Origin: a virus
DNA: 64,000 nt
Strand: one strand, 5' to 3'
IMG/VR virus record: IMGVR_UViG_3300020456_000005
Part shown: in pieces, positions 1-64,000 of the stretch
How the letters are laid out: each line of letters starts with the position of its first letter
Position numbering within the stretch: the first letter of the stretch is position 1
Notes under the pieces: generated by a model
The model's database searches: none
Seen by the model: the letters and a program-made list of their open reading frames with translations, nothing else
Told to the model about the DNA's origin: nothing
Made by a program: the position numbers and the translations under genes

Positions 1-2
1 GT

Positions 3-1919
3 GCAGTTGGTGAGTTGATCAGTGATCAATCTCCTTCCAACTACCTCTATTACTTCCCAGTTAAGGGAACCTTCGTACAGAATGAAGTTGTCACTGGACA
101 AACTTCATCTGCATATGTAACTCTCGTTAATAACACTGATGCAGTCACTGGACAGAAAGGTTTCGTACTTACTGTTGTTGATCTTGCTGCTGGTCCTGAC
201 CAAGGTGGTTCTGTTGAATTGCAGGACAACGGAGTTAATGATGACGCTGGTTCATACGTTATCTCCAACTCCAGCTACACTGCTCCAGATGGTAGAGGTT
301 CTCTAACCGTCAACAGAGGTGCTCTAGGATCTACTGCAGCAGCTCATGATGGTACTACATCTATTACACACTATCCAGAGAACGCAACTGCTGTAACAAC
401 TACATTGAGTGGTGCTATCAACTCAACCTCAACAGGTACTGAAGCAGCACCATACATCATGGGTGTTGATAGTGTTACTGGAATGATTGCAAATGGTTAC
501 GTTGTTGTTAATCAGGAACTCTTTAAGGTTGTAGCAATTATCGCTGCAGACCAGATTGAGGTTGCTAGAGCACAAGACGGAACGATTGCACAAAACCACG
601 CACAAGGCGATGCGGTAACAATTTATCAGACAAAGGTTACTTCTCAGGATGAACTGATTGAAGATACAACTGATGCTCAATTGGCCCTTCGTGTTAAGCG
701 TGCAGACCTCAACTTTGAGGCAAATGATTATGTCAAGATTGACAATGAATTCTTCCTTATCTCTGCAGTAACTCCTGATACTACTGGTATTACTACACTT
801 CTCTTCTCTGATGAGAAAGTAATTGCTGCAGGCGATGGACAAGACTTTAAGATTCGCTATCGTTATTCACAGGTCAGACTAACTGCTCACGACTTCCTAG
901 ACGTTGGTACTGGAAGCAAAGCAAATACTAATTGGCCTGGTCTACCTCTATCACCAAACGTTCCTTCATACGAGACTGATGAATCCCGTCCAGGTCGTGT
1001 TTACTACGTATCCACGGACCAAGATGGTAACTTCGCAGTTGGTAAGTACTTCAGAGTTGAACAGGCAACTGGTAAAGCAACTCTAGACGCTTCCGCGTTT
1101 GACCTATCTGGTCTATCAAGTTTGAGACTTGGTTCTATCGGTGCTCAGTTGGGTGCTGCTATTAACGAGTTCTCAACTGACGGCACGATGGCGCAGAACA
1201 GTAACGAGAAAGTTCCTACTCAGGCAGCAGTCGTTACTTACATCAGCAATCTAAGCGGTGTTGATTCTGACTTTAGCATTGGTGGTAACCTCACTGTTAA
1301 GGGAACTACAACAACAGTTTCTTCTGTTACTGTTACTTCAAAAGACCGTAACATTGAACTTGGTACTGTTGCTTCTGGATCTTTCACTGGTGATATTGCT
1401 GCTGGTTCAACTGATATTACAAACGTTAGTGACACCACAAACCTCGCACCAGGAGTTGCTATTTCACTAACCAGTGGTGGTGGCACAGTTACCATGTCTG
1501 GTTCTTATACAGTATCTTCTATCTCAGGAACTACAGTTACTCTAAGTGCTGTATTCCAAGGTAGTGGTAGTGCAACTGGTGCATCATTCACTGCTGGTGG
1601 ACCTTCAGATGTCACTGGCGACGGTGGTGGTATTACTGTAAAAGCTGGTAACGACAAGTCTATTTCTTGGTCTGCATCTGGTGATAAGTGGGTGCTTTCC
1701 GAGCACGTTGATATTCCTGCTTCTAAGGAATACCACATTGATGGAACCTCTGTTCTATCTGCAACTGCTGTACTAGGTAAGTCATTTGACAATGATACAA
1801 CCCTTGGCGCTGGATCTGCGGATGATGCATCTGTTCCTACTCAATTAGCAGTTAAGACATACGTTGACAGTCAAACTCAAGAAGTAACTGCTATCGGTTA
1901 TTTCATTGCAGCAATGTGA
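3..1919 (+). CDS. Large tail-fibre-like virion protein, 5'-truncated by the window edge
   Basis: Frame open from nt 3; G/T/S-rich; repeated motifs (INEFSTDGT..KVPTQAAVVTYI / FDNDTTL..SVPTQLAVKTYV); lies upstream of neck genes. Confidence 0.7.
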   Translation, partial: AVGELISDQSPSNYLYYFPVKGTFVQNEVVTGQTSSAYVTLVNNTDAVTGQKGFVLTVVDLAAGPDQGGSVELQDNGVNDDAGSYVISNSSYTAPDGRGSLTVNRGALGSTAAAHDGTTSITHYPENATAVTTTLSGAINSTSTGTEAAPYIMGVDSVTGMIANGYVVVNQELFKVVAIIAADQIEVARAQDGTIAQNHAQGDAVTIYQTKVTSQDELIEDTTDAQLALRVKRADLNFEANDYVKIDNEFFLISAVTPDTTGITTLLFSDEKVIAAGDGQDFKIRYRYSQVRLTAHDFLDVGTGSKANTNWPGLPLSPNVPSYETDESRPGRVYYVSTDQDGNFAVGKYFRVEQATGKATLDASAFDLSGLSSLRLGSIGAQLGAAINEFSTDGTMAQNSNEKVPTQAAVVTYISNLSGVDSDFSIGGNLTVKGTTTTVSSVTVTSKDRNIELGTVASGSFTGDIAAGSTDITNVSDTTNLAPGVAISLTSGGGTVTMSGSYTVSSISGTTVTLSAVFQGSGSATGASFTAGGPSDVTGDGGGITVKAGNDKSISWSASGDKWVLSEHVDIPASKEYHIDGTSVLSATAVLGKSFDNDTTLGAGSADDASVPTQLAVKTYVDSQTQEVTAIGYFIAAM

Positions 1920-1920
1920 T

Positions 1921-1928
1921 TATAAATA
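1921..1928 (+). promoter_or_regulatory. T4-type late promoter TATAAATA
   Basis: Exact T4 late consensus, intergenic, upstream of 1973. Confidence 0.75.
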
Positions 1929-1972
1929 ATCAAAACACTCTAAAGTCCGATCATAACAAGGAGAATTAACCA

Positions 1973-2287
1973 ATGGCATCAGGAGTATATGGAAAGGCGG
2001 ACTTAACCGCCTCTACTTGGACGACACTAGTCGCCGCACCTACATCTGGAACTAAAGTTTGTACTGTTAACCTATCTAACAGAACAGGATCTAACATTAC
2101 CGTAAGAATTGCACTCGCATCAACTACTACTGTAACTGATGCTGATTATATTGAATATGAAGTAACTCTTCCAGCAAATGGTGTTTTAGAAAGAACGGGT
2201 ATTGTTCTAGATACCTCAAACGGTATTCAAGTATATGCAGGTGGAACTGGCATTAGTGCAGTTTCATACGGTATTGATGGTAATTGA
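1973..2287 (+). CDS. Small putative fibre-associated virion protein (104 aa)
   Basis: AGGAG RBS; beta-rich; directly follows the fibre gene. Confidence 0.6.
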   Translation: MASGVYGKADLTASTWTTLVAAPTSGTKVCTVNLSNRTGSNITVRIALASTTTVTDADYIEYEVTLPANGVLERTGIVLDTSNGIQVYAGGTGISAVSYGIDGN

Positions 2288-2325
2288 TTCATCATATTGA
2301 TAACGAACTATAATAGGAAAAACTA

Positions 2326-4412: not shown

Positions 4413-5894
4413 ATGGCAAGAAGTATTAGCACAAAACCCGCAACGGTTAAATCAAAAACTCAAAATCCATATACACAACCATGTTTTGCTACGTATGCAT
4501 GCGAACATAGTGTATATGGATGTGGGTATATTTTATTTGATCATAACCTTGAAGCAATTGGAAAATACGTTGGTGATGGAAACTATCACCAAAATCAATT
4601 CAGAACTTATACTTCGTATTCTCCAGAATTTTGGAATAACTATGCAGGTTCTGCTTACATGGAGACGCAAGGTCATGCAGGTAGTAGCGAGAATTATGGT
4701 TCTAATACCTGTAATAATGGTTACTTAGGACATATGGGTCATTATAGCGTGACTGAATTTGCTAAAACTGCAGGATATAACCGTGGTTGGCCATCAGCAC
4801 ACAATTATAATGCATATGGATTTAGAGATGTTAATTCTATTGTAGGTGATATCAATCAAGATTGGGCATGGTTTACTGACAGAGATGGAAGTGGACACAG
4901 AATGTTGTTTGGTCAAAGAAGTGCTGCTAAGTATTATCAGAATAGGGTTAGAGAAGGGATGAACATGGTTAATGTCCCAATTCAATCTCAAGAAGGTCCT
5001 ACTAGTAGTACTGGAACTACGGATAATAGATTCTATGGTGGTTCCTGCATCAATACCAGAGCTAATAGAGTTTGCTTGATGCAAACAGATGGCAGTGGTT
5101 ATAAGCAACCCATTGTTTATAACAATGTAAAAATGGATTGGAGAGCATACGCTCTTCATAATAATCATTTTGCAGGAACAACAGAAGCAAGTGCTGCTAA
5201 ATCAGATAGTGATTCAAAGATCTATCAGTTCTTTAACAACAGTGCAAACTATACTGCATATGATAGAGCAAATCATTCTAATGCAGCATCTTACTCAGGT
5301 TCAGGAGAATCTTATTGGAGAACTCAATCTTGTATCTGTGATAATGGAATGGTATATACCTTCTCAATGACACCTGGCAACGGTTGTTCATTTGAAAAGT
5401 GGAATACGGACGGAACATACGCTGGTGTACAATGGAACGGAACTTGGACCACATCATATGGTTATGAGCAAGGTCATCGCTTTGGTTCTAGATGGCAAGT
5501 AAGTAGCGATGGTGAGTATTGGTGGGCATACTGTCCTTCATACTATTATGGTGCTGGTATTTACTTTGCAGTGGTTAGAGTCAGTGATGGTAAGTGGTTG
5601 TATTTCCAATCAAATGATAGTACTCATGGAAGATCTTTGGCACCATTAGGTAAACATAAAATGGTGTATACATATTCCACCAACAAAGATAATCCTGGTA
5701 CTTACTACAGAATTATGGATTTTGATTATGAATTCAGAAGAAGACCTAATGGAGACAATATCGGTGACTGGGATAGTAACTATTCCGCTTACTTACTTGA
5801 TACTGCAGGAAACAGTACTGGATATCCATTCATTATTCCAGCGATGTACAACACTTCCCTGTTTACTTCTCAGTTAGAGAGTAACGTAGAGTAA
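4413..5894 (+). CDS. Putative receptor-binding/fibre-tip protein, paralogue B (493 aa)
   Basis: Shares NP.(S/T)QPCF, GYLGHM.H, GQRSA..YY, GSRWQVS.DG and YYYGAG with 2326..3873. Confidence 0.5.
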   Translation: MARSISTKPATVKSKTQNPYTQPCFATYACEHSVYGCGYILFDHNLEAIGKYVGDGNYHQNQFRTYTSYSPEFWNNYAGSAYMETQGHAGSSENYGSNTCNNGYLGHMGHYSVTEFAKTAGYNRGWPSAHNYNAYGFRDVNSIVGDINQDWAWFTDRDGSGHRMLFGQRSAAKYYQNRVREGMNMVNVPIQSQEGPTSSTGTTDNRFYGGSCINTRANRVCLMQTDGSGYKQPIVYNNVKMDWRAYALHNNHFAGTTEASAAKSDSDSKIYQFFNNSANYTAYDRANHSNAASYSGSGESYWRTQSCICDNGMVYTFSMTPGNGCSFEKWNTDGTYAGVQWNGTWTTSYGYEQGHRFGSRWQVSSDGEYWWAYCPSYYYGAGIYFAVVRVSDGKWLYFQSNDSTHGRSLAPLGKHKMVYTYSTNKDNPGTYYRIMDFDYEFRRRPNGDNIGDWDSNYSAYLLDTAGNSTGYPFIIPAMYNTSLFTSQLESNVE

Positions 5895-14563: not shown

Positions 14564-14756
14564 AGATCAAGAATGGAGTTGTCATCTGGATTTAGGAATT
14601 CATGACATTCGCGCATTGTATCAGGTGATTGATTACGCTCTTCAAACATGGCCAGGATCTCCTGCAAGACCTCCTGAGGAACAGGAATATCTTCATTACA
14701 TGAAAAAGCAATTGTTTGCCATGATTGCAGACTACACGTTTACAAACGTAAAATAA
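14553..14756 (+). CDS. Hypothetical protein
   Basis: WPGSPARPPEEQE motif; AGGA upstream. Confidence 0.65.
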   Translation: MIPEDQEWSCHLDLGIHDIRALYQVIDYALQTWPGSPARPPEEQEYLHYMKKQLFAMIADYTFTNVK

Positions 14757-16792: not shown

Positions 16793-17013
16793 TGAATATA
16801 GAGGATCAGTTCTCACTAGACCATCTGATATTTACCGAAAGGAAATGTAGAACCTGTGGTGTAACTAAAGAATTGATAAACGATTTCTATAAGATAAGAA
16901 AAAATAGAACTACTCCGTCAGCATATTCATATGAATGTAAAGAATGCACCAAGAAAAGAGTTCTAAAACGTAGAAAAACTGACAGTCAAAGATGGGAGTA
17001 TCCAGACTGGTAG
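16792..17013 (+). CDS. Small Zn-finger protein
   Basis: CRTC...CKEC; TGATG coupling to g17. Confidence 0.65.
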   Translation: MNIEDQFSLDHLIFTERKCRTCGVTKELINDFYKIRKNRTTPSAYSYECKECTKKRVLKRRKTDSQRWEYPDW

Positions 17014-17098
17014 TGAGTTCATGCATCGTTTCCCCTCTGAAGAAACCCTTTTGGATAAATAATTTCAGGTAAAATCGGAATTTCTAAGGAGATAAAAG

Positions 17099-19321
17099 AT
17101 GGCAAGTCAAGTCTCGCCTGGTGTTGTTTTAAGGGAACGCGACCTCACAAATACTACCATTGTGGGCAATTCAGCTCTAACAGCAGCTTTTGCATCATCT
17201 TTCCAGAAAGGACCAATCGGAGAAATCACATCTGTTTCATCTTTGAAAGAGTTTGTTGGTATCTTTGGTACTCCTTCGGAAGCAAATGCAGAAGACTGGT
17301 TAGTTGCATCTGAGTTCCTAGGATATGGTGGTAGACTAGCAGTAGTACGTGCTGAGTCCGCTGTCCTTAACGCAACTTCAGATGGTTCAGCAGTATTAAT
17401 TAAAAACGAAGCAGACTACACTTCAGGTGTTGGTGGTGCTGAAGTATTTGCAGCAAGGACTGCAGGAACTTGGGGTAACTCCCTTAAAGTTGTAGCAGTT
17501 GACCGTGGAGCGGATCAAATCCTAACACTAGCATCTGCACCAGCTACTACTGCAATGAATACTGCATTCACTACCGTAAGTGGAAAGGCAGGAAGAATTT
17601 ATTCTTGGGATGCTGCTACAAGTGAATTGGCAGTCATTCTTGACAACCCAGCATCACTCCTTACATCCGCAGAAGTTTTTGATGAACCAGGTGATGGTGT
17701 TGTTGCAGGAGTTACCCCAGCTGCATATGCAGGACAAGGTTCTCAAAATGGATCTCATGTCGTAGATCCAACTGGTGGAACTGGAACGGGTCTAAGACTA
17801 CAAGTTATCATTGATGTTGGTGGAAGCGTCACCAGTGTTACCATTGTTAATGGTGGTACAGGTTATGCTCAGGGCGATTCAGTTACATGTCCTGCTGCAA
17901 ACTTAGGTACAGGAGCTGTTGCTGATCTAACAGTTAGTGTTGACTCCGTATCTAACGATAACATCGCTATCACTTCAGTAAAAGATTGGTACACCAATAC
18001 AACTATTGCAGGAACAACTTTAAAACTTTCTGCTATTGGTCCACGTCCTGGTACATCACAATTTGCTTCTGATAGAGGTATTTCATATGATGAAATTCAC
18101 CTAGCAGTTATTGATGTTACTGGTAATGTTTCTGGTGCTGCAGATACAGTTCTAGAAAGACTAACATATCTTTCTAAACTAACTGACGCTAAGAATCCAG
18201 AAGGAGCATCACTATACTTCAAAGATATTGTTAATCTAGAATCTGAGTATATCTTTACTAGTGGAGCACTTGCAAATCTAATTGAACCAACACAAGGTGG
18301 TGGAGGAGAAGCATTAGGACAAGCATCTACTGCAATTTCTTCTGGATCTAAGTTGCTTCTAACAGCAGATAACATCTCCAATCTTTCTGGTGGTGCTGAT
18401 GATTATGCATATACTGCTGGCGAAGTAAATGGTGCATATGATCTATTCTTAGATACTGAAGCAACTACAATTGACTTCATTCTAATGGGTGGTTCAATGG
18501 GTAGTGAAGCAGATACTCTAGCAAAAGCACAAAAGGTTGTTGCTGTTGCAGCTGGTCGTAAAGATGCACTAGCATTTGTTTCACCACATAAAGGAAACCA
18601 AATTGGAACTGGCGGATCTGCACTCACTGCTGCTGATCAAAGAACTAACACCGTTAACTTCTTTAACGCAATTTCATCTACTTCATTCGCTGTCTTAGAC
18701 AGTGGTTATAAGTACATGTATGACCGTTTCAATGACAAGTATCGTTATGTTCCTTGCAATGGTGACATTGCTGGTCTTTGTGTTAACACTTCAGAAACAG
18801 TCGCTGATTGGATTTCACCTGCTGGTATGAATCGTGGCGGTCTCCGCAATGTAATCAAACTTGCATTCAATCCAAACAAAGCAGATAGAGACGAACTTTA
18901 TCAGAACAGAATTAACCCAGTCGTTACCTTCCCTGGTAGTGGAGCAGTTCTATTCGGTGATAAGACTGCACTTGCTGCACCTTCCGCATTTGATAGAATT
19001 AATGTTCGTCGTCTCTTCCTTAATATTGAGAAGAGAGTTGAAGAACTTGCTAAGGGTGTTCTATTTGAAATTAATGATGAAACAACTCGTGGTGGATTCC
19101 TATCAACAATCACTTCATATCTTTCTAGCATTGAAGCGCAGCAAGGAATTACAGATTTCCTAGTTGTTTGTGATGGAACTAACAACACAGCTGATGTAAT
19201 TGACCGCAACGAATTTGTTGCAGAACTATTCATCAAACCTGCTCGCTCCATCAACTATGTTTCAGTAACGTTTACTGCAACGAGAACTGGAGTTTCGTTC
19301 AGCGAAGTCGTTGGACGCTGA
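17099..19321 (+). CDS. g18: Tail sheath protein gp18
   Basis: SPGVVLRERDLT, SPAG.NRG, FDRINVRRLF, KPARSINY. Confidence 0.97.
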   Translation: MASQVSPGVVLRERDLTNTTIVGNSALTAAFASSFQKGPIGEITSVSSLKEFVGIFGTPSEANAEDWLVASEFLGYGGRLAVVRAESAVLNATSDGSAVLIKNEADYTSGVGGAEVFAARTAGTWGNSLKVVAVDRGADQILTLASAPATTAMNTAFTTVSGKAGRIYSWDAATSELAVILDNPASLLTSAEVFDEPGDGVVAGVTPAAYAGQGSQNGSHVVDPTGGTGTGLRLQVIIDVGGSVTSVTIVNGGTGYAQGDSVTCPAANLGTGAVADLTVSVDSVSNDNIAITSVKDWYTNTTIAGTTLKLSAIGPRPGTSQFASDRGISYDEIHLAVIDVTGNVSGAADTVLERLTYLSKLTDAKNPEGASLYFKDIVNLESEYIFTSGALANLIEPTQGGGGEALGQASTAISSGSKLLLTADNISNLSGGADDYAYTAGEVNGAYDLFLDTEATTIDFILMGGSMGSEADTLAKAQKVVAVAAGRKDALAFVSPHKGNQIGTGGSALTAADQRTNTVNFFNAISSTSFAVLDSGYKYMYDRFNDKYRYVPCNGDIAGLCVNTSETVADWISPAGMNRGGLRNVIKLAFNPNKADRDELYQNRINPVVTFPGSGAVLFGDKTALAAPSAFDRINVRRLFLNIEKRVEELAKGVLFEINDETTRGGFLSTITSYLSSIEAQQGITDFLVVCDGTNNTADVIDRNEFVAELFIKPARSINYVSVTFTATRTGVSFSEVVGR

Positions 19322-19360
19322 TTTTTCGTTAAATACTAATAGAAGGAGTAACTTAGAAAA

Positions 19361-19939
19361 ATGGCAATTACTAGCAACGTTTCAACTTTTTTAACACAGG
19401 TGAAGCAGGGTGTTAGACCTAATATGTTTGAGGTGGACATTTCGTTCCCCTCTGAGATTGCAGGAGACACATCACTTACAGGACTACTTTGTAAGTCAGC
19501 TGCATTACCTGCTTCAAACGTAGGTGTTATTGAAGTTCCTTTCCGTGGTAGAACTGTAAAGATCGCTGGGGATAGAACCTTTGATAACTGGACTGCAACC
19601 TTTATCAACGATAAAGACATGGCAACCCGCGCACGTTTTGAAGAGTGGTTGAACCTAATCAATACACACAAAGCAAATACAACTGCAGAAGCAGATCCAA
19701 CCGAATATTCAGCTTCAGTAATCATCAAACAACTTGAAAAAGATTCTACCGATGGTGGTAAAATTCTAAGATCATATAAACTGTGGTATGCATTCCCAAC
19801 TAGTGCATCTGCAATTGATCTTGCATATGATAGCAATGATCAGATTGAAGAATTTACAGTTGAATTCCAGTATTCATACTGGACTGTTGGAGATGATACT
19901 GAGACTACCGCTGGAGATAGCAATGCTGCGATCCTATAA
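19361..19939 (+). CDS. g19: Tail tube protein gp19
   Basis: RPNMFEV, FRGRTVKIAGDRTF, IEEFTVEFQY. Confidence 0.96.
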   Translation: MAITSNVSTFLTQVKQGVRPNMFEVDISFPSEIAGDTSLTGLLCKSAALPASNVGVIEVPFRGRTVKIAGDRTFDNWTATFINDKDMATRARFEEWLNLINTHKANTTAEADPTEYSASVIIKQLEKDSTDGGKILRSYKLWYAFPTSASAIDLAYDSNDQIEEFTVEFQYSYWTVGDDTETTAGDSNAAIL

Positions 19940-19942
19940 ATA
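19935..19942 (+). promoter_or_regulatory. Late promoter TATAAATA
   Basis: Exact consensus upstream of g20. Confidence 0.7.
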
Positions 19943-19970
19943 ATAGGAAGCGTACAGTTGAAAAATTATC

Positions 19971-21674
19971 ATGAGTCAGTTATTTGGCTTTCAAATTAAT
20001 CGTAAGGAGGGTCAGAAGGGTCAGTCCCCTGTCCCTCCTTCTGCTGACGAGCCAGTCTCTATTGCCGCAGGCGGTTATTTTGGAACATATGTAGACACAG
20101 ACGCTACTGCAAGGAATGAGTTTGAACTCATTCGTAGGTATAGAGACATGTCTCTACACCCAGAAGTAGACTCTGCTGTAGATGAAATTGTGAATGAATT
20201 TGTGGTTAGCGATGCTAATGACAGTTGTGTTGAGGTTGATCTTAACAACTTAGAAGTTGGAGCGGGAGTTAAGAAAAAAATTCGTGACGAGTTTGACAAG
20301 ATCAAACAGATGTTGAATTTTGACAATCGTGCTCATGAAATTATTCGTAGTTGGTATATTGACGGAAAGTTATTTTATCATAAAGTAATTGATTTAGATA
20401 ATCCAAAGAAAGGTATTACTGAACTTCGTTATATTGACCCACTAAAGATTCGTAAAGTAAGACAAAAACTCAGTAAGGGTTCTGATGACCCTAGAGTAAA
20501 TAGAGCATTGAAAGGTACTGCACTGGAGTATGAATGGGGGCAGTACATTGACTATTTCCTATACAATCCCAAAGGATATCTAAGAGGCGGAGCACTCGGT
20601 CCTATTGGAGATATGTCCAACTCCCAAGGAATTAAGATTGCTGCAGATTCAATTGCATTCTGTTCCTCTGGAGTTCAAGATCTTAACAAGAGAATGCATT
20701 TGAGTTTCCTACACAAAGGAATCAAGTCACTCAATCAACTTAGAATGATTGAGGATGCTCTGGTTATTTACAGATTGTCACGCGCACCTGAGCGTAGGAT
20801 TTTCTATATTGATGTAGGTAATTTACCTAAGGTAAAAGCGGAACAGTATCTCCGTGATGTTATGAGTCGCTATCGTAACAAGCTAGTGTATGACGCAAAC
20901 ACTGGTGAGATTCGTGATGACAAAAAACACATGAGTATGCTAGAGGATTTTTGGTTGCCTCGTAGAGAGGGTGGTCGCGGAACTGAGATCACTACACTGC
21001 CAGGTGGACAAAACCTAGGCGAACTCAAAGATGTTGAGTATTTTAAGAAGAAGCTTTATAACAGCCTCAATCTTCCTCCTTCCCGTCTCACCGACGATAA
21101 TAAAGGATTCAACCTCGGTAAAACCACTGAAGTCCTTAGAGACGAACTTAAGTTCACAAAGTTCATCGGTAGACTACGTAAAAGATTTGGTGAACTCTTT
21201 CACGATATTCTTAAAACGCAACTCATTCTTAAAGGAGTAATTTCTCCTGAAGATTGGGATGATATGAAGGAGCATATTCAATATGACTTCTTGTTTGATA
21301 ACCATTTCAATGAGTTAAAAGAACAAGAACTAATGACACAGCGCATTGCTCTTGCAACTCAGATGGATCCATTTGTTGGTAAGTATTTCTCAATTGAACA
21401 TATTCGTAGACAAATTCTACAACAGAATGAGAAGGAATATAAGGAAATTGAAAAACAAATGAAGAATGAAATTGATGCTGGTCTAGCAATGAATCCATCT
21501 GATGTTAATACATTTGACATGATGGATCGCCAGAATGCTGCATTTGCTCCTGAAATTGCAGCGCAACAAGCTGATGACTCTCACGAACGAGAGCAAGAAA
21601 AAGCAGACGACGCGCATCAAAAACAATTGCAAATGGCGAAAGCGCAACCTAAACCTTCTTCTAATACTAAATAA
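19971..21674 (+). CDS. g20: Portal protein gp20
   Basis: YRLSRAPERRIFYIDVGNLPK, EDFWLPRREGGRGTEITTLPG. Confidence 0.98.
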   Translation: MSQLFGFQINRKEGQKGQSPVPPSADEPVSIAAGGYFGTYVDTDATARNEFELIRRYRDMSLHPEVDSAVDEIVNEFVVSDANDSCVEVDLNNLEVGAGVKKKIRDEFDKIKQMLNFDNRAHEIIRSWYIDGKLFYHKVIDLDNPKKGITELRYIDPLKIRKVRQKLSKGSDDPRVNRALKGTALEYEWGQYIDYFLYNPKGYLRGGALGPIGDMSNSQGIKIAADSIAFCSSGVQDLNKRMHLSFLHKGIKSLNQLRMIEDALVIYRLSRAPERRIFYIDVGNLPKVKAEQYLRDVMSRYRNKLVYDANTGEIRDDKKHMSMLEDFWLPRREGGRGTEITTLPGGQNLGELKDVEYFKKKLYNSLNLPPSRLTDDNKGFNLGKTTEVLRDELKFTKFIGRLRKRFGELFHDILKTQLILKGVISPEDWDDMKEHIQYDFLFDNHFNELKEQELMTQRIALATQMDPFVGKYFSIEHIRRQILQQNEKEYKEIEKQMKNEIDAGLAMNPSDVNTFDMMDRQNAAFAPEIAAQQADDSHEREQEKADDAHQKQLQMAKAQPKPSSNTK

Positions 21675-21684
21675 AGAATAAGTC

Positions 21685-22525: not shown

Positions 22526-22574
22526 TTTAATAAATAAACAATAGATAATCATAAGATTTACGGAAGGACTCAAA

Positions 22575-23747: not shown

Positions 23748-23784
23748 TTATTATCAAACCCTATTTTTCCAAACGGAGCTAAAA

Positions 23785-39298: not shown

Positions 39299-39558
39299 AT
39301 AAAAAGACAACTCCTGAAAATGTAAAAGAAGCTCATGAAGGACTTTTTTATGCTACAATGAATCTACCTACCGCAGCAAAACATTGCGGTATGACCCAGA
39401 AGGAGTTGAAAATGACATTCTTTGAATACCTTAAGTACAATGCCCCAAACTTTGAAATCACTGAAGACACCCCTGAGGTACCCAGGCGGCAAGAGCAGGG
39501 CTCTGGCAAACCTGTTCCGATTCCTCCCAGACCTTTCCCAGGTAACAGAGTATCGTGA
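39295..39558 (+). CDS. Hypothetical protein overlapping the dam 5' end
   Basis: TTGA coupling to g44; HTH-like NLPTAAKHCGMT. Confidence 0.55.
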   Translation: MNKKTTPENVKEAHEGLFYATMNLPTAAKHCGMTQKELKMTFFEYLKYNAPNFEITEDTPEVPRRQEQGSGKPVPIPPRPFPGNRVS

Positions 39559-40279
39559 ACCTTTCTTGGGCGGCGGTAGTGTCGCCCTTGAGGTTACTAA
39601 AAGATATCCTAGACTGAATATTTGGGTCAACGATTTGTATGAACCGTTGACTAATTTTTGGAAGACTTTGCAGGACGATGGGTACAACATGTACAAACGT
39701 CTTCAAGAACTAAAGTCTAGGTATCCAGATCAAGAATCTGCACGTGGATTGTTTGAAGAAGCAAAAGATCTTGTAAATGATTCTGACACTTCTCATCTAT
39801 ATCGTGCTTGTGCTTTCTATGTTATTAACAAGTGTAGTTTCTCTGGTTTAACTGAGTCTTCATCATTCTCTAAGCAAGCATCTGAATCTAATTTTTCAAT
39901 GCGTGGAATTGAAAGATTGCCAGCATATACAGAACTAATTGAAAATTGGAAGATTACTAATGGTCGCTACCAAGAACTCCTTACTGATGACAAAAACATA
40001 TTCACCTACCTTGATCCACCCTATGAAATCGGATCCAATTTATATGGTAAGCGTGGAAGTATGCACAAAGGATTTGACCATGATGGGTTTGCTACTATTT
40101 GTGACCGTTTTGTCGGTCCTCAACTTATATCTTACAATTCGTCTCAGATGATTCGTGACCGTTTTAAGGAGTGGACAGTTGCGGAATTTGCACACACTTA
40201 CACCATGCGCTCTGTGGGGAGTTATAATATAGATCAAGCGTCTCGTAAGGAACTAGTCCTTTTTAATTATGAAATGTGA
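39440..40279 (+). CDS. dam: Dam-like DNA adenine methyltransferase
   Basis: RYPGGKS, EPFLGGGS, YLDPPY. Confidence 0.92.
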   Translation: MPQTLKSLKTPLRYPGGKSRALANLFRFLPDLSQVTEYREPFLGGGSVALEVTKRYPRLNIWVNDLYEPLTNFWKTLQDDGYNMYKRLQELKSRYPDQESARGLFEEAKDLVNDSDTSHLYRACAFYVINKCSFSGLTESSSFSKQASESNFSMRGIERLPAYTELIENWKITNGRYQELLTDDKNIFTYLDPPYEIGSNLYGKRGSMHKGFDHDGFATICDRFVGPQLISYNSSQMIRDRFKEWTVAEFAHTYTMRSVGSYNIDQASRKELVLFNYEM

Positions 40280-45076: not shown

Positions 45077-45249
45077 GTAAGAAAGTCTTTGTGGTAACAT
45101 GGACAAATCACGTAGTCGGTCAAATTGGATCTGAAGACATCAAATGTTTTGAAGACTACAAAACTGCTCTTGCGTTTGCTAAACTAATGCGAGACAATTA
45201 TACTTATGTAAACTTTTATGAGGATGAAGCAACACAATGGGATTTTTAG
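45073..45249 (+). CDS. Small hypothetical protein (58 aa)
   Basis: Manual translation [18 protein letters not shown]...; ATGA coupling to g43. Confidence 0.6.
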
Positions 45250-46250
45250 ATACTGTAATTAAAGATAGTGGAAACGAATTTGCTGGTTTGGTTAGTGAAG
45301 GAGTTGCTGCTGGCGACATTACTAATTACGTTGATACTGGCAGTTATATCTTTAACGCCTTGGTTAGTGGTTCGTTGTTTGGAGGCTTGCCTTCCAACAA
45401 AGTTACAGCCTTGGCAGGAGAATCAAGCACGGGCAAGACTTTTTTTGCTCTCAGCGTCGTTCGTAATTTCCTTGACGCTAATCCTACAGGTGGCGTCATT
45501 TATTTTGAAACTGAATCCGCCATTTCCCGTGACATGATTGAGTCTCGTGGCATTGACAGTTCTCGTATGGTACTGTTCCCTGTTGCTACCATTGAGGAGT
45601 TCAGGACACAGGCATGCAGGATCCTTGACAAGTATCTTAAGGAACCAAAGGAGAGCAGACAACCAATGATGTTTGTGCTAGACTCTCTTGGTATGCTTTC
45701 AACCAATAAAGAGATGGAAGATGTTGCTAACGACAAACAAGTTCGTGACATGACCAAATCACAGTTGATCAAAGGTGCCTTCCGTGTGCTAACATTGAAG
45801 CTTGGTCAGGCACAAGTCCCTATGATCGTCACAAACCATACCTATGATGTGATCGGTTCCTATGTCCCTGCAAAGGAGATGGGAGGCGGTACAGGTCTTA
45901 AGTATGCTGCATCTACTATCATCTATCTTGGCAAGAAGAAGGAGAAAGATGGCACTGAACTGGTGGGTAACATCATCAAGTGCGAAGCAAAGAAATCTCG
46001 TCTAACCAAGGAGGGTAGTAAAGTTGAAACTCGTCTATTTTTTGACGACCGTGGACTTGACAAGTATTACGGGCTACTGGAATTGGGTGAACAGTACGGA
46101 ATCTTCAAGCGGGTGGGGAATCGCATTAAGTTTGGTGAATCTTCTGTTTATCCTAAATCTATTCTCTCTAATCCTGAGAAGTATTTTACCGAAGAAGTAA
46201 TGGCAAAACTAGAAGAAGCTGCCAGAGAAGAATTTACCTACGGAAACTAA
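45237..46250 (+). CDS. uvsX: RecA-like recombinase UvsX
   Basis: [22 protein letters not shown]. Confidence 0.96.
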
Positions 46251-46939
46251 TGAACTATTCTGAATTTATTACTAAGTACAAAACTATTAAAGAAAAGGGA
46301 TTTATTAAATCTCAACGTAAAGGTGATGGTGCTGTTGGTAATACATTTGAAGATGAATTGGGACTGCAAGAAAATAACATAGCAGGACCAGACATTGAAG
46401 GTAACGAATTAAAAGTTAAGCGAGCAACTGCTAGTGGACTACAAACTCTCTTCAACAAAGAAGGTGAGTGGCAAATGACACAAATTGAATTTCTTGAGGG
46501 ATATGGATTCCCACATACCAAATATGTTGGTGAAAAAACTGCTCAATCTACAGTTAAAAAAACACCTAACAAGAGAGGGTATTATTTTGAAACTGATGAA
46601 GAGCATCTCTATGTTAAATGTAAAGATGTCACCATTGTAAAATGGAATTGGACTCAGTTGGTAGAGCAATTTGGTAAGAAATTTCCTAATTGTATTAAAG
46701 TATTAGCAGAGACAAAAAAGATTGGAGGTGTTGAATACTTTCATTATAATAAAGCATACTTGTTTAAAGGAACTACAAAAGAAAAGTTCAAAGAGTTAAT
46801 TGAAGAAGATGTAATTTCTATTGACTTCAGACTTTACACTCAGTATAATAAAGGTAAGGGAGTAAGAAATCGTGGTACTGCTTTTCGTATCCGTCACGAA
46901 GATATGGATAAATTATTTGTTAAGGAGACTCTAAATTGA
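46250..46939 (+). CDS. MvaI/BcnI-family restriction endonuclease
   Basis: RKGDGAVGNTFEDELGLQENNIAGPDIEGNELK (PD..ELK), C-terminal RNRGTAFRI. Confidence 0.8.
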   Translation: MNYSEFITKYKTIKEKGFIKSQRKGDGAVGNTFEDELGLQENNIAGPDIEGNELKVKRATASGLQTLFNKEGEWQMTQIEFLEGYGFPHTKYVGEKTAQSTVKKTPNKRGYYFETDEEHLYVKCKDVTIVKWNWTQLVEQFGKKFPNCIKVLAETKKIGGVEYFHYNKAYLFKGTTKEKFKELIEEDVISIDFRLYTQYNKGKGVRNRGTAFRIRHEDMDKLFVKETLN

Positions 46940-47787
46940 AGGACACAATTCTCTTTGGTGATTGTCGTGAAACATTAAAAGAGTTTACTGGTAAGGCGAG
47001 GATGTGTGTAACATCACCGCCTTATTATGGTTTGAGAAACTATGGTGGTGAACAAGATCAAATTGGTCTGGAACAAACACCAGAAGAATATGTTGACAAT
47101 CTCGTAAAAGTATTTCGTGAGGTAAGAAATTGTCTTACTGATGATGGAACATGCTGGGTTAATCTTGGTGATAGTTACTATAACTATAGACCAGGTAAAG
47201 GACAAGCAATTCATAAACAATCAGTATCTAAAACTAACCAAGATTTACCTAGCACATGTGCTAGACGAGGTAACAAACTAGAAGGTCTTAAAGAAAAAGA
47301 TCTTATTGGTATTCCTTGGATGTTTGCTTTTGCTATGAGAGCAGACGGATGGTATCTAAGACAAGATATTATCTGGAATAAACCTAATCCTATGCCTGAA
47401 AGTGTACGAGATAGATGTACTAAATCACATGAGTATATCTTTTTGTTTAGCAAAAGTCAGAATTATTATTTTGATGTTGATGCTATCAAAGAACCAACTG
47501 TAGATGGTAAAGGATTGAAGCGTAAGAAAACTGTGTGGGAAGTTAAAACCAAACCATATAAAGGAGCACACTTTGCTGTGTATCCACCAGAACTAATTGA
47601 ACCGTGTATTAAATCTGGAAGTGAAGAAGGTGACATTGTATTAGATCCTTTTATGGGATCTGGTACAACTGCTTTAGTATCCAAATCATTACAAAGGCAC
47701 TATCTGGGTTGCGAATTACATGAAGATTATGGTAGACTAATTCAGAAAAGGTTGAGTGAAAAATCATTTGCAAAAATTAAATTCTAA
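46936..47787 (+). CDS. Beta-class N4-cytosine/N6-adenine DNA methyltransferase
   Basis: TSPPY motif IV near N-terminus, DPFMGSGT motif I near C-terminus. Confidence 0.9.
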   Translation: MKDTILFGDCRETLKEFTGKARMCVTSPPYYGLRNYGGEQDQIGLEQTPEEYVDNLVKVFREVRNCLTDDGTCWVNLGDSYYNYRPGKGQAIHKQSVSKTNQDLPSTCARRGNKLEGLKEKDLIGIPWMFAFAMRADGWYLRQDIIWNKPNPMPESVRDRCTKSHEYIFLFSKSQNYYFDVDAIKEPTVDGKGLKRKKTVWEVKTKPYKGAHFAVYPPELIEPCIKSGSEEGDIVLDPFMGSGTTALVSKSLQRHYLGCELHEDYGRLIQKRLSEKSFAKIKF

Positions 47788-49172
47788 TGGCTGAACGAAT
47801 TGAAGAAATTATTTTACGAAACCTTCTCTTTAACGAAGAATATTATCGTAAGGTAGTGCCTTTCTTAAAGGCAGAATATTATGAGATTTACCATGAGAAA
47901 ATTATCTACGAAGAGATTGCTGACTTCGCTAGTAAGTACGATAAAGTTCCTACTAAAGAAGTTCTTACGATTAATCTACAAAACCGTAATGATCTTACTG
48001 ACGAATCGTTCAAAGATTCGGTACAGGCAGTATCCAACCTCTCGGACGAGTGGGTTGACTACGACTGGTTGCTTGACGCCACAGAAAAGTGGTGCAAGGA
48101 CCGAGCTATATACCTCGCACTCATGCAATCAATCAAGATTGCGGACGGCGGCGATCAGAAGATTTCGCGAGATGCGATACCCTCCATTCTCCAAGAAGCC
48201 TTGGCGGTTTCGTTTGATGAACACATCGGACACGATTACATAGAACAAGCAACAGACAGATATGATTTCTACCACAGAACAGAAGAAAAGATTCCCTTTG
48301 ACCTTGATAAGTTTAACTACATTACCAAAGGTGGTCTCCCTAATAAGACTCTCAACATCGCTCTTGCTGGTACAGGCGTCGGGAAAAGTCTATTCATGTG
48401 CCACTGCGCTGGTGCCGCGCTCACTCAGGGGAGGAACGTTCTCTACATTACATGTGAAATGGCAGAGGAGAAAATTGCTGAACGAATTGATGCAAACCTT
48501 CTGAACGTTAGTATTAGAGATCTTGCTGATCTACCCGAAGTTCTTTTCTCTAGTAAAGTTAATGAGATTGCTCGTAAAACTCAGGGCAAACTTATCATTA
48601 AAGAGTATCCAACAGCGTCTGCACATGCAGGACATTTCAGGGCACTCTTAAGTGATCTTAAACTAAAGAAAGATTTCAAACCCGATATTATTTTTATTGA
48701 TTATTTAAACATATGTGCAAGTGTGAGGTACAAAGGTGCGATTGTTAACTCGTATACCTATGTTAAAGCGATTGCTGAGGAGCTCCGTGGCTTTGCTGTG
48801 GAGTGTAACGTACCTATTATTAGTGCTACTCAGACTACTCGTTCTGGTTATGGGAATAGTGATCCAGATCTTACCGATACTTCTGAGTCTTTTGGTCTAC
48901 CTGCCACTGCTGATCTTATGTTTGCCCTTATCTCTACTGAGGAGTTGGAACAACAAGGTCGCATCATGGTCAAACAACTTAAAAACAGATACAATGAAAC
49001 CGCTGCCTCACGAAAATTCATGGTGGGAATTGACAGATCAAAAATGAAGCTGTATGATGTAGCGGATGACGCATCAGAAATTAATATTTCAGATGAAGAT
49101 ACGGGAGAACAGTTCTCCCAGTTTGCAGAATCCCAAACTAGATTATCCAAATTTGCCGAGTGGAATGTATGA
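47787..49172 (+). CDS. g41: Replicative helicase gp41
   Basis: AGTGVGKS, IDYLNI, ATQTTR, KQLKNRY. Confidence 0.96.
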   Translation: MAERIEEIILRNLLFNEEYYRKVVPFLKAEYYEIYHEKIIYEEIADFASKYDKVPTKEVLTINLQNRNDLTDESFKDSVQAVSNLSDEWVDYDWLLDATEKWCKDRAIYLALMQSIKIADGGDQKISRDAIPSILQEALAVSFDEHIGHDYIEQATDRYDFYHRTEEKIPFDLDKFNYITKGGLPNKTLNIALAGTGVGKSLFMCHCAGAALTQGRNVLYITCEMAEEKIAERIDANLLNVSIRDLADLPEVLFSSKVNEIARKTQGKLIIKEYPTASAHAGHFRALLSDLKLKKDFKPDIIFIDYLNICASVRYKGAIVNSYTYVKAIAEELRGFAVECNVPIISATQTTRSGYGNSDPDLTDTSESFGLPATADLMFALISTEELEQQGRIMVKQLKNRYNETAASRKFMVGIDRSKMKLYDVADDASEINISDEDTGEQFSQFAESQTRLSKFAEWNV

Positions 49173-50746
49173 AGATTAAAAGTATTATGGTTGTTGGCGG
49201 TGGGTCATCTGGTTGGATGACTGCTGCTGCTTTATGTAAAAAATTTGGTAAAGATATTAAAGTATCTGTTATTGAAGGAAAGAATTCCAATCCAGTTGGA
49301 GTAGGTGAATCTACTATTACTAAATTTAATTCTTATTTGAATTATATTCTTGAAATTGAAGATAAAGAGTGGATGCCTCATTGCAATGCCACCTATAAAA
49401 CTTCAATTAGATTTACTAATTTTAGAGATGGTAATGGTGAGGTATTTGAATACCCATTTGCAGGGTATCATAATGAAGATTCTTTTGGTAGGTGGTCTGT
49501 TGTCCGCGCAAAATATGATTTGGGACCAGACTCTTTCAATGAGTTTATGAATCAGGCTTATTGGTTAGCAAAACATAATAGGATGACTGACAATCCTGGT
49601 TTTGAATTTCAATTCTCATTGAAAAAAGATTCGGCATATCATTTTGATGCTGGTCTTTTTGGAAAGTTTCTTAAGAAAAGATTCTGTAAGAAAGCAAAGC
49701 ATTACATTGACGATGTTGTTGCCGTAAAAAAAGATGAAGACGGATACATCACTTCTTTAGTTGGAGATTCTGGAACTGAATACTCTGCAGATCTGTATGT
49801 TGATTGTACTGGATTTAAATCTTTACTCCTAGAAAAGGAAATGGGATCTGAGTTTGTTTCTTTCAAACCATGGTTAGATAACGATAGAGCTATTGCAACT
49901 CATTTACCATATAAAGATAAAAAGACAGAGCTCTGCAACGTTACCAATTGCACAGCATTAAGTAGTGGATGGTCATGGAATATTCCTTTATGGAATCGTA
50001 TGGGATCTGGATATGTTTACTCTAGTGATTTTATCAGTGATGATGATGCAGAAAAGGAGTTTAAAAAACATGTAGGTAATGAAGATATTGATATTCGTAA
50101 GATTAATATCCGACATGGAGTGAGAGAAAGAGGATGGGTTAAAAATGTAGTTGGTGTAGGTCTTGCGTTTGGTTTTATTGAACCACTAGAATCTACAGGA
50201 CTTGTGTCTACCCATGAAATGATTGAGCAACTAATTGAAATTCTTGATAGACGTAAGTATAATATTACTGGTTTTGATAGAGACTCTTACAACTATACTT
50301 GTCAGTTAGTTGTAACTGGATACATGTATTTTGTTTCTCTTCATTATAAACTTTCTCAAAGAAGTGATACTCCTTACTGGAAATATCAAACTGAACTTAA
50401 AGACTGGTTTAAACTTTCTGATCCTAGATTGTTTGCACAAAGAAAAGTTCATATTTCATATGATAATGGATCAACAAATCACTATGAAAATGTACATCAG
50501 ATGCATTCTCTAGCACACAGATGGGATCCTGAAAAACATGGTATTGCATATATCATGGCAGGCATGGGACATGTTCCTTATGCAGATTATCTTTATAAAG
50601 TCTTCTCAGATTCTGCGAAAGATAATCTTCAAGATGATGTTGATAAACTCTACAAGGAATTTAGAAACTATGTTAAAATACTAGAGGAAAAAGTTCTTAC
50701 ACTTCCAACATCTTACGAATTTCTACAACAAAACATTTATTCTTAA
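49169..50746 (+). CDS. prnA: Flavin-dependent (tryptophan) halogenase family protein
   Basis: GGGSSG, GVGEST, ATYK, YHFDA, DCTGF, WSWNIP, FIEPLESTG. Confidence 0.88.
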   Translation: MKIKSIMVVGGGSSGWMTAAALCKKFGKDIKVSVIEGKNSNPVGVGESTITKFNSYLNYILEIEDKEWMPHCNATYKTSIRFTNFRDGNGEVFEYPFAGYHNEDSFGRWSVVRAKYDLGPDSFNEFMNQAYWLAKHNRMTDNPGFEFQFSLKKDSAYHFDAGLFGKFLKKRFCKKAKHYIDDVVAVKKDEDGYITSLVGDSGTEYSADLYVDCTGFKSLLLEKEMGSEFVSFKPWLDNDRAIATHLPYKDKKTELCNVTNCTALSSGWSWNIPLWNRMGSGYVYSSDFISDDDAEKEFKKHVGNEDIDIRKINIRHGVRERGWVKNVVGVGLAFGFIEPLESTGLVSTHEMIEQLIEILDRRKYNITGFDRDSYNYTCQLVVTGYMYFVSLHYKLSQRSDTPYWKYQTELKDWFKLSDPRLFAQRKVHISYDNGSTNHYENVHQMHSLAHRWDPEKHGIAYIMAGMGHVPYADYLYKVFSDSAKDNLQDDVDKLYKEFRNYVKILEEKVLTLPTSYEFLQQNIYS

Positions 50747-56639: not shown

Positions 56640-56653
56640 TTGAGGGCCTTATT

Positions 56654-57085: not shown

Positions 57086-58061
57086 CGTTAAGTATATCAA
57101 TTTAATATCCCCTCGCCTGAATCTTTTCAGTCGCAAGAAGGCAGACCTGTACAATTTCAGGTGTCCTTACTGTGGTGACTCGCAAAAGAGACGCAATAAG
57201 GCGAGGGGATATTTGTTTAAGATTAAGAACGATTTTGTATATAAATGTCATAATTGTGGCATGGGTAGAACCTTATCAAATTTTATTAAGGATCAAGATA
57301 GTTTTTTACATGACCAGTATGTCATGGAGAAATTTAAAGAAGGTAAGTCTGGCAAAGGAACTACCGTACCCAACCCTAAATTAAATTTCAGCGAACCAAA
57401 ATTTGTTAAAAGAGATACCGATTTACAGAAAATATCGGACCTAAATAGTTCTCACCCAGCGCGAATCTATCTTGAAAAAAGAGGTATCAAAGACCTAGAT
57501 TATTTTCACTACTGTCCTAAATTTAAAGCATGGACAAATAAACAAAAGAAAACTTTTGACACCTTAAGACAAGATAGCGACCGCATCATCATCCCTTTCA
57601 AAGACAAACAAGGTAACCTTTTTGGATTCCAAGGCAGATCACTAGCCCCCAAGGCAAAGTTAAGATACATCACGATCATGCTGGACGAGGCACAACCCAA
57701 GATCTTTGGACAGGATAGAATTAATACAGAAAATCCGATCTATATTGTGGAGGGACCATTTGACTCAACCTTCTTGGAAAACTCGGTTGCTATGGCTGGG
57801 TCCGATGTTGATATTCGGACGTTTGGTTGGAGCAATTATATTTGGGTTTTTGATAATGAACCACGCAATAGAGAAATCGTCAATAGAATCTCCAAAGTCA
57901 TTGACAGAGGAGACAAGGTAGTCATTTGGCCTACTGGAATAAAAGAGAAAGACATCAATGACATGTTCTTAGCTGGACATGATGTGCAATCTCTGGTAGA
58001 CTGTAATGTCTATCGGGGATTAGAAGCAACCCTTAAATTTAACACTTGGAAGAAAGTATGA
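57072..58061 (+). CDS. g61: DNA primase gp61
   Basis: CPYCGDS..CHNC Zn ribbon, VEGPFDS, DNEPRN, KDINDM. Confidence 0.95.
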   Translation: MSYLDVKYINLISPRLNLFSRKKADLYNFRCPYCGDSQKRRNKARGYLFKIKNDFVYKCHNCGMGRTLSNFIKDQDSFLHDQYVMEKFKEGKSGKGTTVPNPKLNFSEPKFVKRDTDLQKISDLNSSHPARIYLEKRGIKDLDYFHYCPKFKAWTNKQKKTFDTLRQDSDRIIIPFKDKQGNLFGFQGRSLAPKAKLRYITIMLDEAQPKIFGQDRINTENPIYIVEGPFDSTFLENSVAMAGSDVDIRTFGWSNYIWVFDNEPRNREIVNRISKVIDRGDKVVIWPTGIKEKDINDMFLAGHDVQSLVDCNVYRGLEATLKFNTWKKV

Positions 58062-62019: not shown

Positions 62020-62487
62020 GTGGAAAAAACAGATTACCCAAACCCTTGGAGATATATGGGCACCGTTTTTGATCGGGACCTTATTCGGGATAACTACGGT
62101 TTTGTTTATATCATTACCAATCTCTCCAACGAACGACAGTACATTGGGAGAAAGTATTTTTGGCAGAAAAGGAAACCAAAAGGGGGTAAGCGTAGAGTCA
62201 CTTCAGAGAGTGACTGGAAAAAATATTACGGGTCATGTCCAGAACTAAAGGACGACATCAAGGAGTATGGTAAGGACAGTTTTAGTCGTGTCATACTCTC
62301 GCTCCACACCACGCCAGGACGTGTAAACTATGAAGAGACAAGGCAACTTTTTCTCCATGATGTTCTGACAAAAGCCTTGACAGACGGCACTCCTGCCTTT
62401 TATAATTCCAACATACTTGGACGTTACTACAGGAAAGATTATTTTGATTTTGGAAATACTGGCGGCGCTGACGCCAATGGATTATGA
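62020..62487 (+). CDS. GIY-YIG-like endonuclease
   Basis: GFVYIITN...YIGRK, YYGS, FYNSNI. Confidence 0.7.
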   Translation: MEKTDYPNPWRYMGTVFDRDLIRDNYGFVYIITNLSNERQYIGRKYFWQKRKPKGGKRRVTSESDWKKYYGSCPELKDDIKEYGKDSFSRVILSLHTTPGRVNYEETRQLFLHDVLTKALTDGTPAFYNSNILGRYYRKDYFDFGNTGGADANGL

Positions 62488-63367: not shown

Positions 63368-63371
63368 CTCA

Positions 63372-63443
63372 GGGTGAATAGCTCAGCGGTAGAGCATCTC
63401 CTTTACACGGAGGCGGTCGGGGGTTCAATCCCCTCTTCACCCA
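63372..63443 (+). tRNA. trnV: tRNA-Val(TAC)
   Basis: Acceptor GGGTGAA/TTCACCC; TCTCC-TT TAC AC-GGAGG. Confidence 0.92.
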
Positions 63444-63471
63444 TTACTTCAAAGAGGTTAAATGCTGAATA

Positions 63472-63720
63472 ATGTTAACGGCGAGATGCAAAGCATGCAA
63501 TGTAGAATTGACAAGCACTAGCAAGGTTCAATTCTGTGGTTGTCCTAATCAAATGAGAGTTGTGGATGATCATGTTGGTGCGAATGACTTAAGTCAAGTT
63601 GTGCTAACCAATCATAAAAAGAATATTAAATATAATGGAATCCTAACACAATCTGATTTACAATATCAGGAGAACCGTCGCAAGCGTAAGGTTCGTAAAC
63701 TTGACTTTGAGGAACGATGA
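63472..63720 (+). CDS. Small Zn-ribbon protein
   Basis: CKAC..CGC.N; GAGG upstream. Confidence 0.7.
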   Translation: MLTARCKACNVELTSTSKVQFCGCPNQMRVVDDHVGANDLSQVVLTNHKKNIKYNGILTQSDLQYQENRRKRKVRKLDFEER

Positions 63721-63953
63721 TCAACCTAGATGACAGATACCATTCTTATCTTCATACAAATAAGTGTTTAAACATTAATAATCAATGTGAAAACGTAATT
63801 GGTTATGGATTTACATGTGATGGTAAGGACATTGATGGTTATTATGTATTGACAAAGAACTACCGACTGTACTATAATCTAAACGAACAGTTCGTTAAAC
63901 TAGAAACAAGGAAAGGTGGCAGAGTGGTTGATTGCATCAGTCTTGAAAACTGA
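63717..63953 (+). CDS. Hypothetical protein running into tRNA-Ser
   Basis: GAGGA RBS and ATGA coupling. Confidence 0.6.
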   Translation: MINLDDRYHSYLHTNKCLNINNQCENVIGYGFTCDGKDIDGYYVLTKNYRLYYNLNEQFVKLETRKGGRVVDCISLEN

Positions 63954-63997
63954 CGATGTGAGAGCATCCGTGGGTTCAAATCCCACCCTTTCCGCCA
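63910..63997 (+). tRNA. trnS: tRNA-Ser(TGA)
   Basis: Acceptor GGAAAGG/CCTTTCC, G73, encoded CCA; TCAGT-CT TGA AA-ACTGA; long variable arm. Confidence 0.93.
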
Positions 63998-64000
63998 CGG

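Follow-up and report, generated by a model that had tools for sequence, protein, structure and literature searches.

Loss of CCGG from a marine cyanomyovirus that also lacks TCGA is apparently old, clade-wide and independent of its nuclease-methylase cassette

How does a virus come to lack every copy of a four-letter DNA word, and which nucleases, if any, has it been escaping? This question is raised by a 64,000-nucleotide part of one virus genome (IMG/VR record IMGVR_UViG_3300020456_000005, 38.7% G+C), which is the whole stretch analysed here and is called the window below. The window lacks CCGG entirely and carries a cassette of two genes, encoding an MvaI/BcnI-family restriction endonuclease and a DNA methylase, within what its gene content and sequence matches identify as a stretch of a T4-like marine cyanomyovirus genome. 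A preliminary description of the window attributed the absence of CCGG to strong selection, exerted either by a host enzyme cutting CCGG or by the phage's own nuclease, should that enzyme be BcnI-like. We found that the depletion extends to further palindromes, that CCGG was lost long ago and is missing from nearly all of the cyanomyoviruses sampled, and that this loss does not depend on the cassette.

Word counts in the window were compared with two null models, the maximal-order Markov expectation for each word and 300 synonymous-codon shuffles of the 72 + strand open reading frames, which make up 93% of the window.

CCGG: observed 0; Markov 42.4; codon shuffle 47.2±6.2 (minimum 32 in 300)
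TCGA: observed 0; Markov 107.7; codon shuffle 180.7±10.7
GGCC: observed 6; Markov 27.5; codon shuffle 42.2±5.5
AGCT: observed 103; Markov 182; codon shuffle 231
GATC: observed 277; Markov 309; codon shuffle 267±12
GCGC: observed 37; Markov 58.5; codon shuffle 53±7 (ratio 0.63-0.70, mildly low)

The Poisson probability of a zero count is 4e-19 for CCGG (at 42.4 expected) and 2e-47 for TCGA. TCGA is the most depleted word of the window, more strongly so than CCGG, and it had been missed in the preliminary description. Both CCCGG and CCGGG are absent, and CCWGG occurs 46 times (18 CCAGG and 28 CCTGG) against 70 expected, a mildly low ratio of 0.66. The reported absence of CCGG and rarity of GGCC were thus confirmed, with the last GGCC site shifted by one position from 57927. 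By contrast, the description of CCWGG as common is correct only in that the word is present, and of GATC and GCGC, both called frequent, only GATC stands at expectation.

Words that differ from CCGG or TCGA by one letter lie at 0.78-1.47 of expectation and mostly at 1 or above, and among the neighbours of CCGG only CCTG falls below it, at 0.78. A CCGG can always be removed by synonymous change, and the word is missing in all flanking contexts, including but not limited to rCCGGy. As the depletion goes beyond both null models while the neighbouring words are spared, it bears the mark of selection on the palindromic words themselves via synonymous codons, in agreement with the strong selection first proposed for CCGG. 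One might suspect that base composition, codon choice or mutation produced the absence as a side effect, given that CG-containing words are somewhat low in general in this window of modest G+C content (ACGT at 0.77 and GCGC at 0.63 of the Markov expectation). However, null models incorporating composition, dinucleotides and codon usage still expect 42-47 CCGG and 108-181 TCGA, and the complete genome of a close relative with similar G+C (G001) keeps 87 CCGG of 109 expected, leaving such a side effect extremely improbable. Decay of CCGG by deamination of 5-methylcytosine (m5C) was ruled out, as the products CTGG (1.04) and CCAG (1.01) are not enriched. A type IV nuclease with a YCGR target was also ruled out, since the non-palindromic YCGR words TCGG (1.07) and CCGA (1.24) are undepleted.

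The six GGCC sites that survive in the window are the following.

683..686, + strand, GGCC in Leu-Ala (TTG GCC), synonymously removable
934..937, + strand, GGCC in Trp-Pro (TGG CCT), forced by the protein
4789..4792, + strand, GGCC in Trp-Pro (TGG CCA), forced by the protein
14650..14653, + strand, GGCC in Trp-Pro (TGG CCA), forced by the protein
56645..56648, no strand assigned, GGCC in an intergenic spacer
57928..57931, + strand, GGCC in Trp-Pro (TGG CCT), forced by the protein

Trp-Pro is the sole protein context in which GGCC resists recoding, and four of the six sites have the form TGG-CCN and account for all four Trp-Pro dipeptides encoded in the open reading frame set of the window. Given that the survivors cover every such dipeptide, GGCC has been purged almost to the limit that the proteins allow.

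Whether the cassette is involved can be read from relatives that do or do not carry it. Eighty loci around uvsX were fetched, and the 78 loci without the nuclease total 910 kb. Pooled, these nuclease-free loci hold 31 CCGG against 512 expected, with none at all in 71 of the 78, and their observed and expected counts for other words are 142/628 for GGCC, 1054/2870 for AGCT, 1921/2768 for TCGA and 4727/5274 for GATC. Among the complete cyanomyovirus genomes compared, G001 is the sole CCGG-bearing one. The first of the two CCGG-free genomes, G003 (194,437 bp), has 0/98 CCGG, 9/119 GGCC, 32/428 CTAG and 191/647 GTAC, while P-SSM2 (252 kb) has 0/83 CCGG, 0/71 GCGC and 0/34 CGCG. No copy of the nuclease was found in G003 or P-SSM2 by hidden Markov model (HMM) search and tblastn, and the same nuclease HMM recovered both records known to carry the gene as a positive control. 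Relatives lacking the cassette are therefore as depleted as the window, which breaks the link drawn in the preliminary description between CCGG loss and the enzyme of the phage. Across the cyanomyoviruses sampled, no other words are depleted as widely as GGCC and CCGG.

The age of these losses was gauged on a quick midpoint-rooted tree of uvsX, a single gene from a mosaic type of genome. CCGG-free loci occur in every deep clade of this tree, and the CCGG-bearing ones (L014-L016, L037, L053, L031 and L055) are nested tips, such that the loss of CCGG looks ancestral on this gene with a few later relaxations. The TCGA-free loci, by contrast, are scattered within the clade of the window, comprising the window itself, L007, L018 and L028-L030 (each of these relatives with 0 against 11-21 expected), with L032 as a weak case (0 against 6 expected) and L024, L025 and L027 nearly TCGA-free. 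All of the TCGA-free relatives lack the nuclease, and the cassette-bearing L001, L005 and L006 do contain TCGA. AGCT-free loci (L048, L060, L069, L071 and L076) group together. The word purges thus form a mosaic with turnover among close relatives, in which CCGG loss spans nearly the whole sample and TCGA loss is limited to a few scattered close relatives of the window.

What, then, does the cassette (46250-47787) do? Its genes and their neighbours are listed below.

45237-46250, uvsX, 5' of the cassette
46250..46939, + strand, MvaI/BcnI-family restriction endonuclease, 229 amino acids (Pfam PF15515, E 2.4e-46)
46936..47787, + strand, N4/N6 amino-methyltransferase, 283 amino acids (Pfam PF01555, E 2.8e-57, 194.7 bits)
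47787-49172, gp41, 3' of the cassette

At 159 bits, the PF15515 match clears the curated cut-off of 25 and places residues 7-223 on profile positions 1-227. Among proteins in the PDB, MvaI is the better match to the window nuclease (phmmer E 1e-16) and BcnI the poorer (2e-12). The catalytic E..PD..ELK signature (TFE...GPD...ELK), which is also conserved in the homologues L001-L005, aligns with E36, D50, E55 and K57 of MvaI in the numbering of PMC1874612, relative to which the MvaI chain in the alignment is offset by +3. In BcnI, His77 and His219 read the central C:G pair, and a smaller residue at either position relaxes discrimination against CCWGG (PMC3089477). The window nuclease has Asn (in TLFN) and Ala (in GTAFRI, a motif identical to that of MvaI) at these positions, where MvaI has Thr and Ala. 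All five phage homologues possess TLFN or TLFT together with GTAFR and so lack both BcnI histidines, and the L005 homologue has Thr at the His77 position as MvaI does. These residues suggest that the window nuclease is more likely to cut CCWGG than CCSGG, and they speak against the BcnI-like enzyme of the preliminary description.

The methylase is translationally coupled to the nuclease, and the pair sits between uvsX and gp41. Its motif IV (SPPY, residue 27) precedes motif I (VLDPFMG, residue 235), the SPPY form is typical of N4-cytosine enzymes, and M.MvaI protects through N4-methylation of the inner C (PMC1874612). By this likeness, the coupled methylase would mask the CCWGG sites of the window. 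If the nuclease has the predicted CCWGG specificity, the 46 CCWGG of the window would need the methylase, and CCGG would be irrelevant to the cassette. A relation between CCWGG level and the presence of an SPPY methylase was looked for and rejected, as the ratio stays at 0.66-0.85 in every myovirus, whether it carries the methylase or lacks it, and follows no clear pattern.

The nuclease is rare, with one match in 50,697 phage records and copies in 6 of 84 fetched loci (four IMG/VR loci and the two more divergent copies in L005 and L006). The methylase is far more widespread: nuclease-free copies of 65-73% identity occur in many cyanomyoviruses, and in L025 and L031-L035 a lone methylase of the same family occupies the slot between uvsX and gp41. 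Either the nuclease came to lie beside an orphan methylase already in place, or it was repeatedly lost. We also observed that in L005 (11089-12623) and L006 the methylase is 95% identical to that of the window, and the adjoining nuclease just 54%, suggesting that the nuclease gene either was swapped or is evolving much faster than its partner.

These results bear directly on the proposal that CCGG is avoided for safety from a BcnI-like (CCSGG) nuclease of the phage's own, which would then cut host DNA only. The family assignment of the nuclease and the lack of any CCSGG in a CCGG-free window are what such a model predicts. However, it has to contend with nuclease-free relatives that are equally CCGG-free, with the rarity of the nuclease, and with the loss of both histidines that read a central C:G (Ala and GTAFRI matching MvaI, the other being Asn against Thr of MvaI). 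In addition, a coupled methylase has been kept that would be needless in a site-free genome, and the loss of TCGA and GGCC is left unexplained. We therefore consider this proposal very improbable.

Restriction-site avoidance, by which site-free DNA escapes site-specific nucleases, probably explains the purge, with the loss of CCGG being old, clade-wide and independent of the cassette. By this mechanism, a cyanomyovirus genome would lose short palindromes through selection on synonymous codons, and DNA without a given site would be uncuttable by any nuclease requiring it. In the window, the losses comprise all CCGG, all TCGA, all GGCC except those forced by Trp-Pro and two others, and about half of AGCT, and other lineages have purged AGCT, CTAG, GCGC or CGCG. 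Words with a plausible phage methylase are retained, namely GATC at about 1.0 (a D12-class enzyme) and CCWGG at 0.66 (the SPPY enzyme). The D12-class gene of the window is as follows.

39422..40279, + strand, D12-class (Dam-like) DNA methyltransferase (Pfam PF02086, E 5.3e-29)

Homologues of this gene are present in G001, G003 and P-SSM2, and none is present in the related pelagiphage HTVC008M, in which GATC is at 83/379, TCGA at 2/95 and CGCG at 1/68. The retention of GATC with a D12 methylase and its depletion without one fits a pattern in which a word is either methylated or avoided. The GATC target of the window enzyme is a prediction, because D12-class enzymes may be GGCC-specific in cyanobacteria (PMC4390886).

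The selecting nucleases would be type II restriction enzymes of the hosts, encountered through a wide host range, and a host CCGG cutter, one of the two agents first suggested, is plausible in this role. Some T4-like cyanophages are generalists that can infect 7-9 of 17 strains, and T7-like cyanophages are specialists (PMC6708340), a difference in host range that fits a depletion seen in myoviruses only. Generalist myoviruses would meet rare host restriction systems far more often than T7-like specialists. As a stand-in for a marine host, a freshwater Cyanobium stretch (L228, 21 kb, 62% G+C) holds 153 CCGG of 169 expected and 139 CCWGG, and a picocyanobacterial chromosome like that of Cyanobium would be densely cut by an enzyme specific for either word. 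A scan of genome contigs with the phage zwf matched non-cyanobacterial genomes only, apart from two contigs that are probably mis-binned phage DNA. A look-up of host D1 proteins through phage psbA returned non-host cyanobacteria (L185, with a HetZ gene), a phage contig and a freshwater Cyanobium contig. HetZ is typical of filamentous cyanobacteria.

Several observations weigh against host restriction as the selecting force. CCGG stands at or close to expectation in phages of other families that infect the same host genera (P-SSP7 27/32, Syn5 186/197, P60 145/148 and P-SS2 232/235). These are podoviruses and one siphovirus, so the avoidance is not shared among phages of the same host genera, and the case for host enzymes is weakened. 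Restriction-modification is reported to be uncommon in these hosts, and active defence systems are recognisable in just 4 of 17 strains (PMC6708340), while strain WH8102 has no recognisable defence system (PMC11726456). Furthermore, G001 tolerates CCGG even though no recognisable m5C or N4/N6 methylase was found in it, and methylation in place of avoidance was therefore ruled out as an account of this CCGG-tolerant genome.

The depletion is confined to myoviruses, podoviruses and a siphovirus that infect these host genera being undepleted, which raises the possibility that cyanomyoviruses themselves encode the selecting nucleases, either as solitary self nucleases shredding host DNA or as the nucleases of rivals in co-infection. 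The reported scarcity of host restriction systems (PMC6708340) points the same way, and the window shows that cyanomyoviruses can carry restriction-type nucleases. Similarly, the excess of the cassette methylase over the nuclease is as expected of immunity genes, and a host-like chromosome is dense in CCGG (153 sites in the 21 kb of Cyanobium). By contrast, no HpaII, MspI or TaqI family gene was found in G003, P-SSM2, G001 or G002, in searches that gave above-cut-off matches for HpaII and TaqI in a control genome, gave only a sub-threshold match for MspI, and would let unknown nuclease folds escape. Genes common to G003 and P-SSM2 and missing from G001 amount to 2-oxoglutarate (2OG) oxygenases, a helicase, a methylase and three small open reading frames of 62-96 amino acids, one of which was scanned against Pfam with no match. 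A further endonuclease gene considered in the window is the following.

62020-62487, SegE/GIY-YIG endonuclease (PF19835, 3e-52), just downstream of nrdA/nrdB

The distribution of this gene is the wrong one, as it is present in the CCGG-bearing G001 and in P-SSM2 and is missing from the CCGG-free G003. No open reading frame of the window between 34 and 60 kb follows the TCGA-free loci, and no further restriction-type nuclease was detected in Pfam scans of about 54 window open reading frames. This comparison draws on one CCGG-bearing genome and, for the phage under study, on the window. Taken together, we regard cyanomyovirus-borne selecting nucleases as unlikely. The wider version of this idea is doubtful to a similar degree, namely that all the site losses (near-universal for CCGG, lineage-specific for TCGA, AGCT, CTAG, GCGC and CGCG) were driven not by the scarce host restriction systems but by such nucleases acting on CCGG-rich host DNA or on rivals, with site-free genomes and orphan methylases representing the immunity side of an arms race of phage against phage.

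A different source of selection would be the orphan methylases of cyanobacteria, if the phage avoids the words that they mark and thereby dodges methylation-dependent (type IV) nucleases or disturbed phage functions. GGCC and rCCGGy are orphan methylase targets in several cyanobacteria (PMC6105098, PMC4390886), and the most widely depleted words of the sampled cyanomyoviruses are the matching GGCC and CCGG. However, GATC is likewise a conserved target of orphan methylases and yet shows no avoidance, CCGG is gone in every flanking context and thus beyond rCCGGy, and the purges of TCGA, AGCT, CTAG, GCGC and CGCG do not fit. Podoviruses of the same cells are undepleted, and picocyanobacteria differ from other cyanobacteria in such motif systems (PMC4390886). 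We consider it improbable that marking by orphan methylases caused the losses.

Restriction-site avoidance itself has precedents. Classic cases include Staphylococcus phage K, which lacks GATC, and Bacillus phages lacking HaeIII sites. Short-palindrome avoidance has been surveyed in virulent double-stranded DNA phages (Rusinov et al. 2018, PMC6286503). The window and its relatives resemble these in that palindromes of 4 bp are wholly or almost wholly lost against the Markov expectation, by synonymous change and with words that differ between relatives, and are kept when the phage has a methylase. They differ from the classic cases, which are defined by a cognate enzyme, in that the hosts of cyanomyoviruses have few reported restriction systems (PMC6708340) and other phage families are undepleted. 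In the literature searched, we found no paper describing the loss of CCGG or TCGA in marine cyanomyoviruses.

The cassette has its own points of comparison. At 283 amino acids, the window methylase is smaller than M.MvaI, which has about 454. The nuclease is like R.MvaI (CC^WGG; PDB 2OA9/2OAA, PMC1874612) in Pfam family, in the E..PD..ExK signature, in the recognition-lobe motif GTAFRI with Ala at the position of BcnI His219 and in its SPPY methylase partner. It is unlike R.MvaI in that the similarity is distant, Asn stands for the MvaI Thr, the cassette lies in the replication operon of a lytic phage and the specificity is predicted. With R.BcnI (CC^SGG; PDB 2ODI/3IMB, PMC3089477), it shares the family of the monomeric MutH-like fold, and a CCGG-free genome would stay uncut by such an enzyme, but H77 and H219 are absent from the window nuclease and all of its five phage homologues. 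Unlike the chloroviruses, in which the comparable enzymes are virion-packaged and used against host DNA, the present phage belongs to a group in which the cassette is rare and fails to account for the missing sites; chloroviruses are moreover viruses of eukaryotic algae. The likeness to chlorovirus restriction-modification (cited in PMC6286503) is that of a lytic virus of a phototroph with a type II nuclease and a protecting methylase.

The assignment of the window to the T4-like marine cyanomyoviruses is based on a megablast search with positions 17000-25000, which matched exclusively marine Synechococcus and Prochlorococcus myoviruses, the top matches being Synechococcus phages ACG-2014j, S-CAM4 and S-RSM4 at about 78% identity over sheath, portal, scaffold and capsid genes. 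Pfam scans of the window open reading frames detected T4-like genes for neck protein, gp15, terminase, UvsW, UvsY, gp46/47-like proteins, clamp, clamp loader, DNA polymerase, UvsX, gp41, primase, NrdA/B and RegA, together with the cyanophage auxiliary genes gnd, zwf, MazG, 2OG oxygenases and a tryptophan halogenase. The last of these follows gp41.

49160-50746, tryptophan-halogenase gene (PF04820, 9e-102)

A homologue of this halogenase was seen in only 3 of 84 related loci. In T4, denA (endonuclease II) comes after nrdB, and in the window the GIY-YIG gene listed above is found there. Two contigs binned into metagenome-assembled genomes (MAGs) of a Methanobacteriota member and a Rhodopirellula member (L085 and L086) contain zwf genes 76-79% identical to the phage zwf, and these contigs are, by that similarity, probably cyanophage DNA mis-binned into those MAGs.

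Site avoidance is a record of the nucleases faced by a phage lineage, and the record is extreme here, as genomes of 190-250 kb contain no CCGG at all and close to 1 Mb of sequence from relatives contains almost none. The present analysis separates the cassette, whose predicted target is CCWGG, from this loss. If host enzymes were the selecting force, nucleases specific for CCGG, GGCC and TCGA would form a reservoir in marine picocyanobacteria that has so far gone unrecognised. The other outcome is that the nucleases come from the phages. Either outcome would revise the view of mostly passive defence in these abundant ocean phototrophs.

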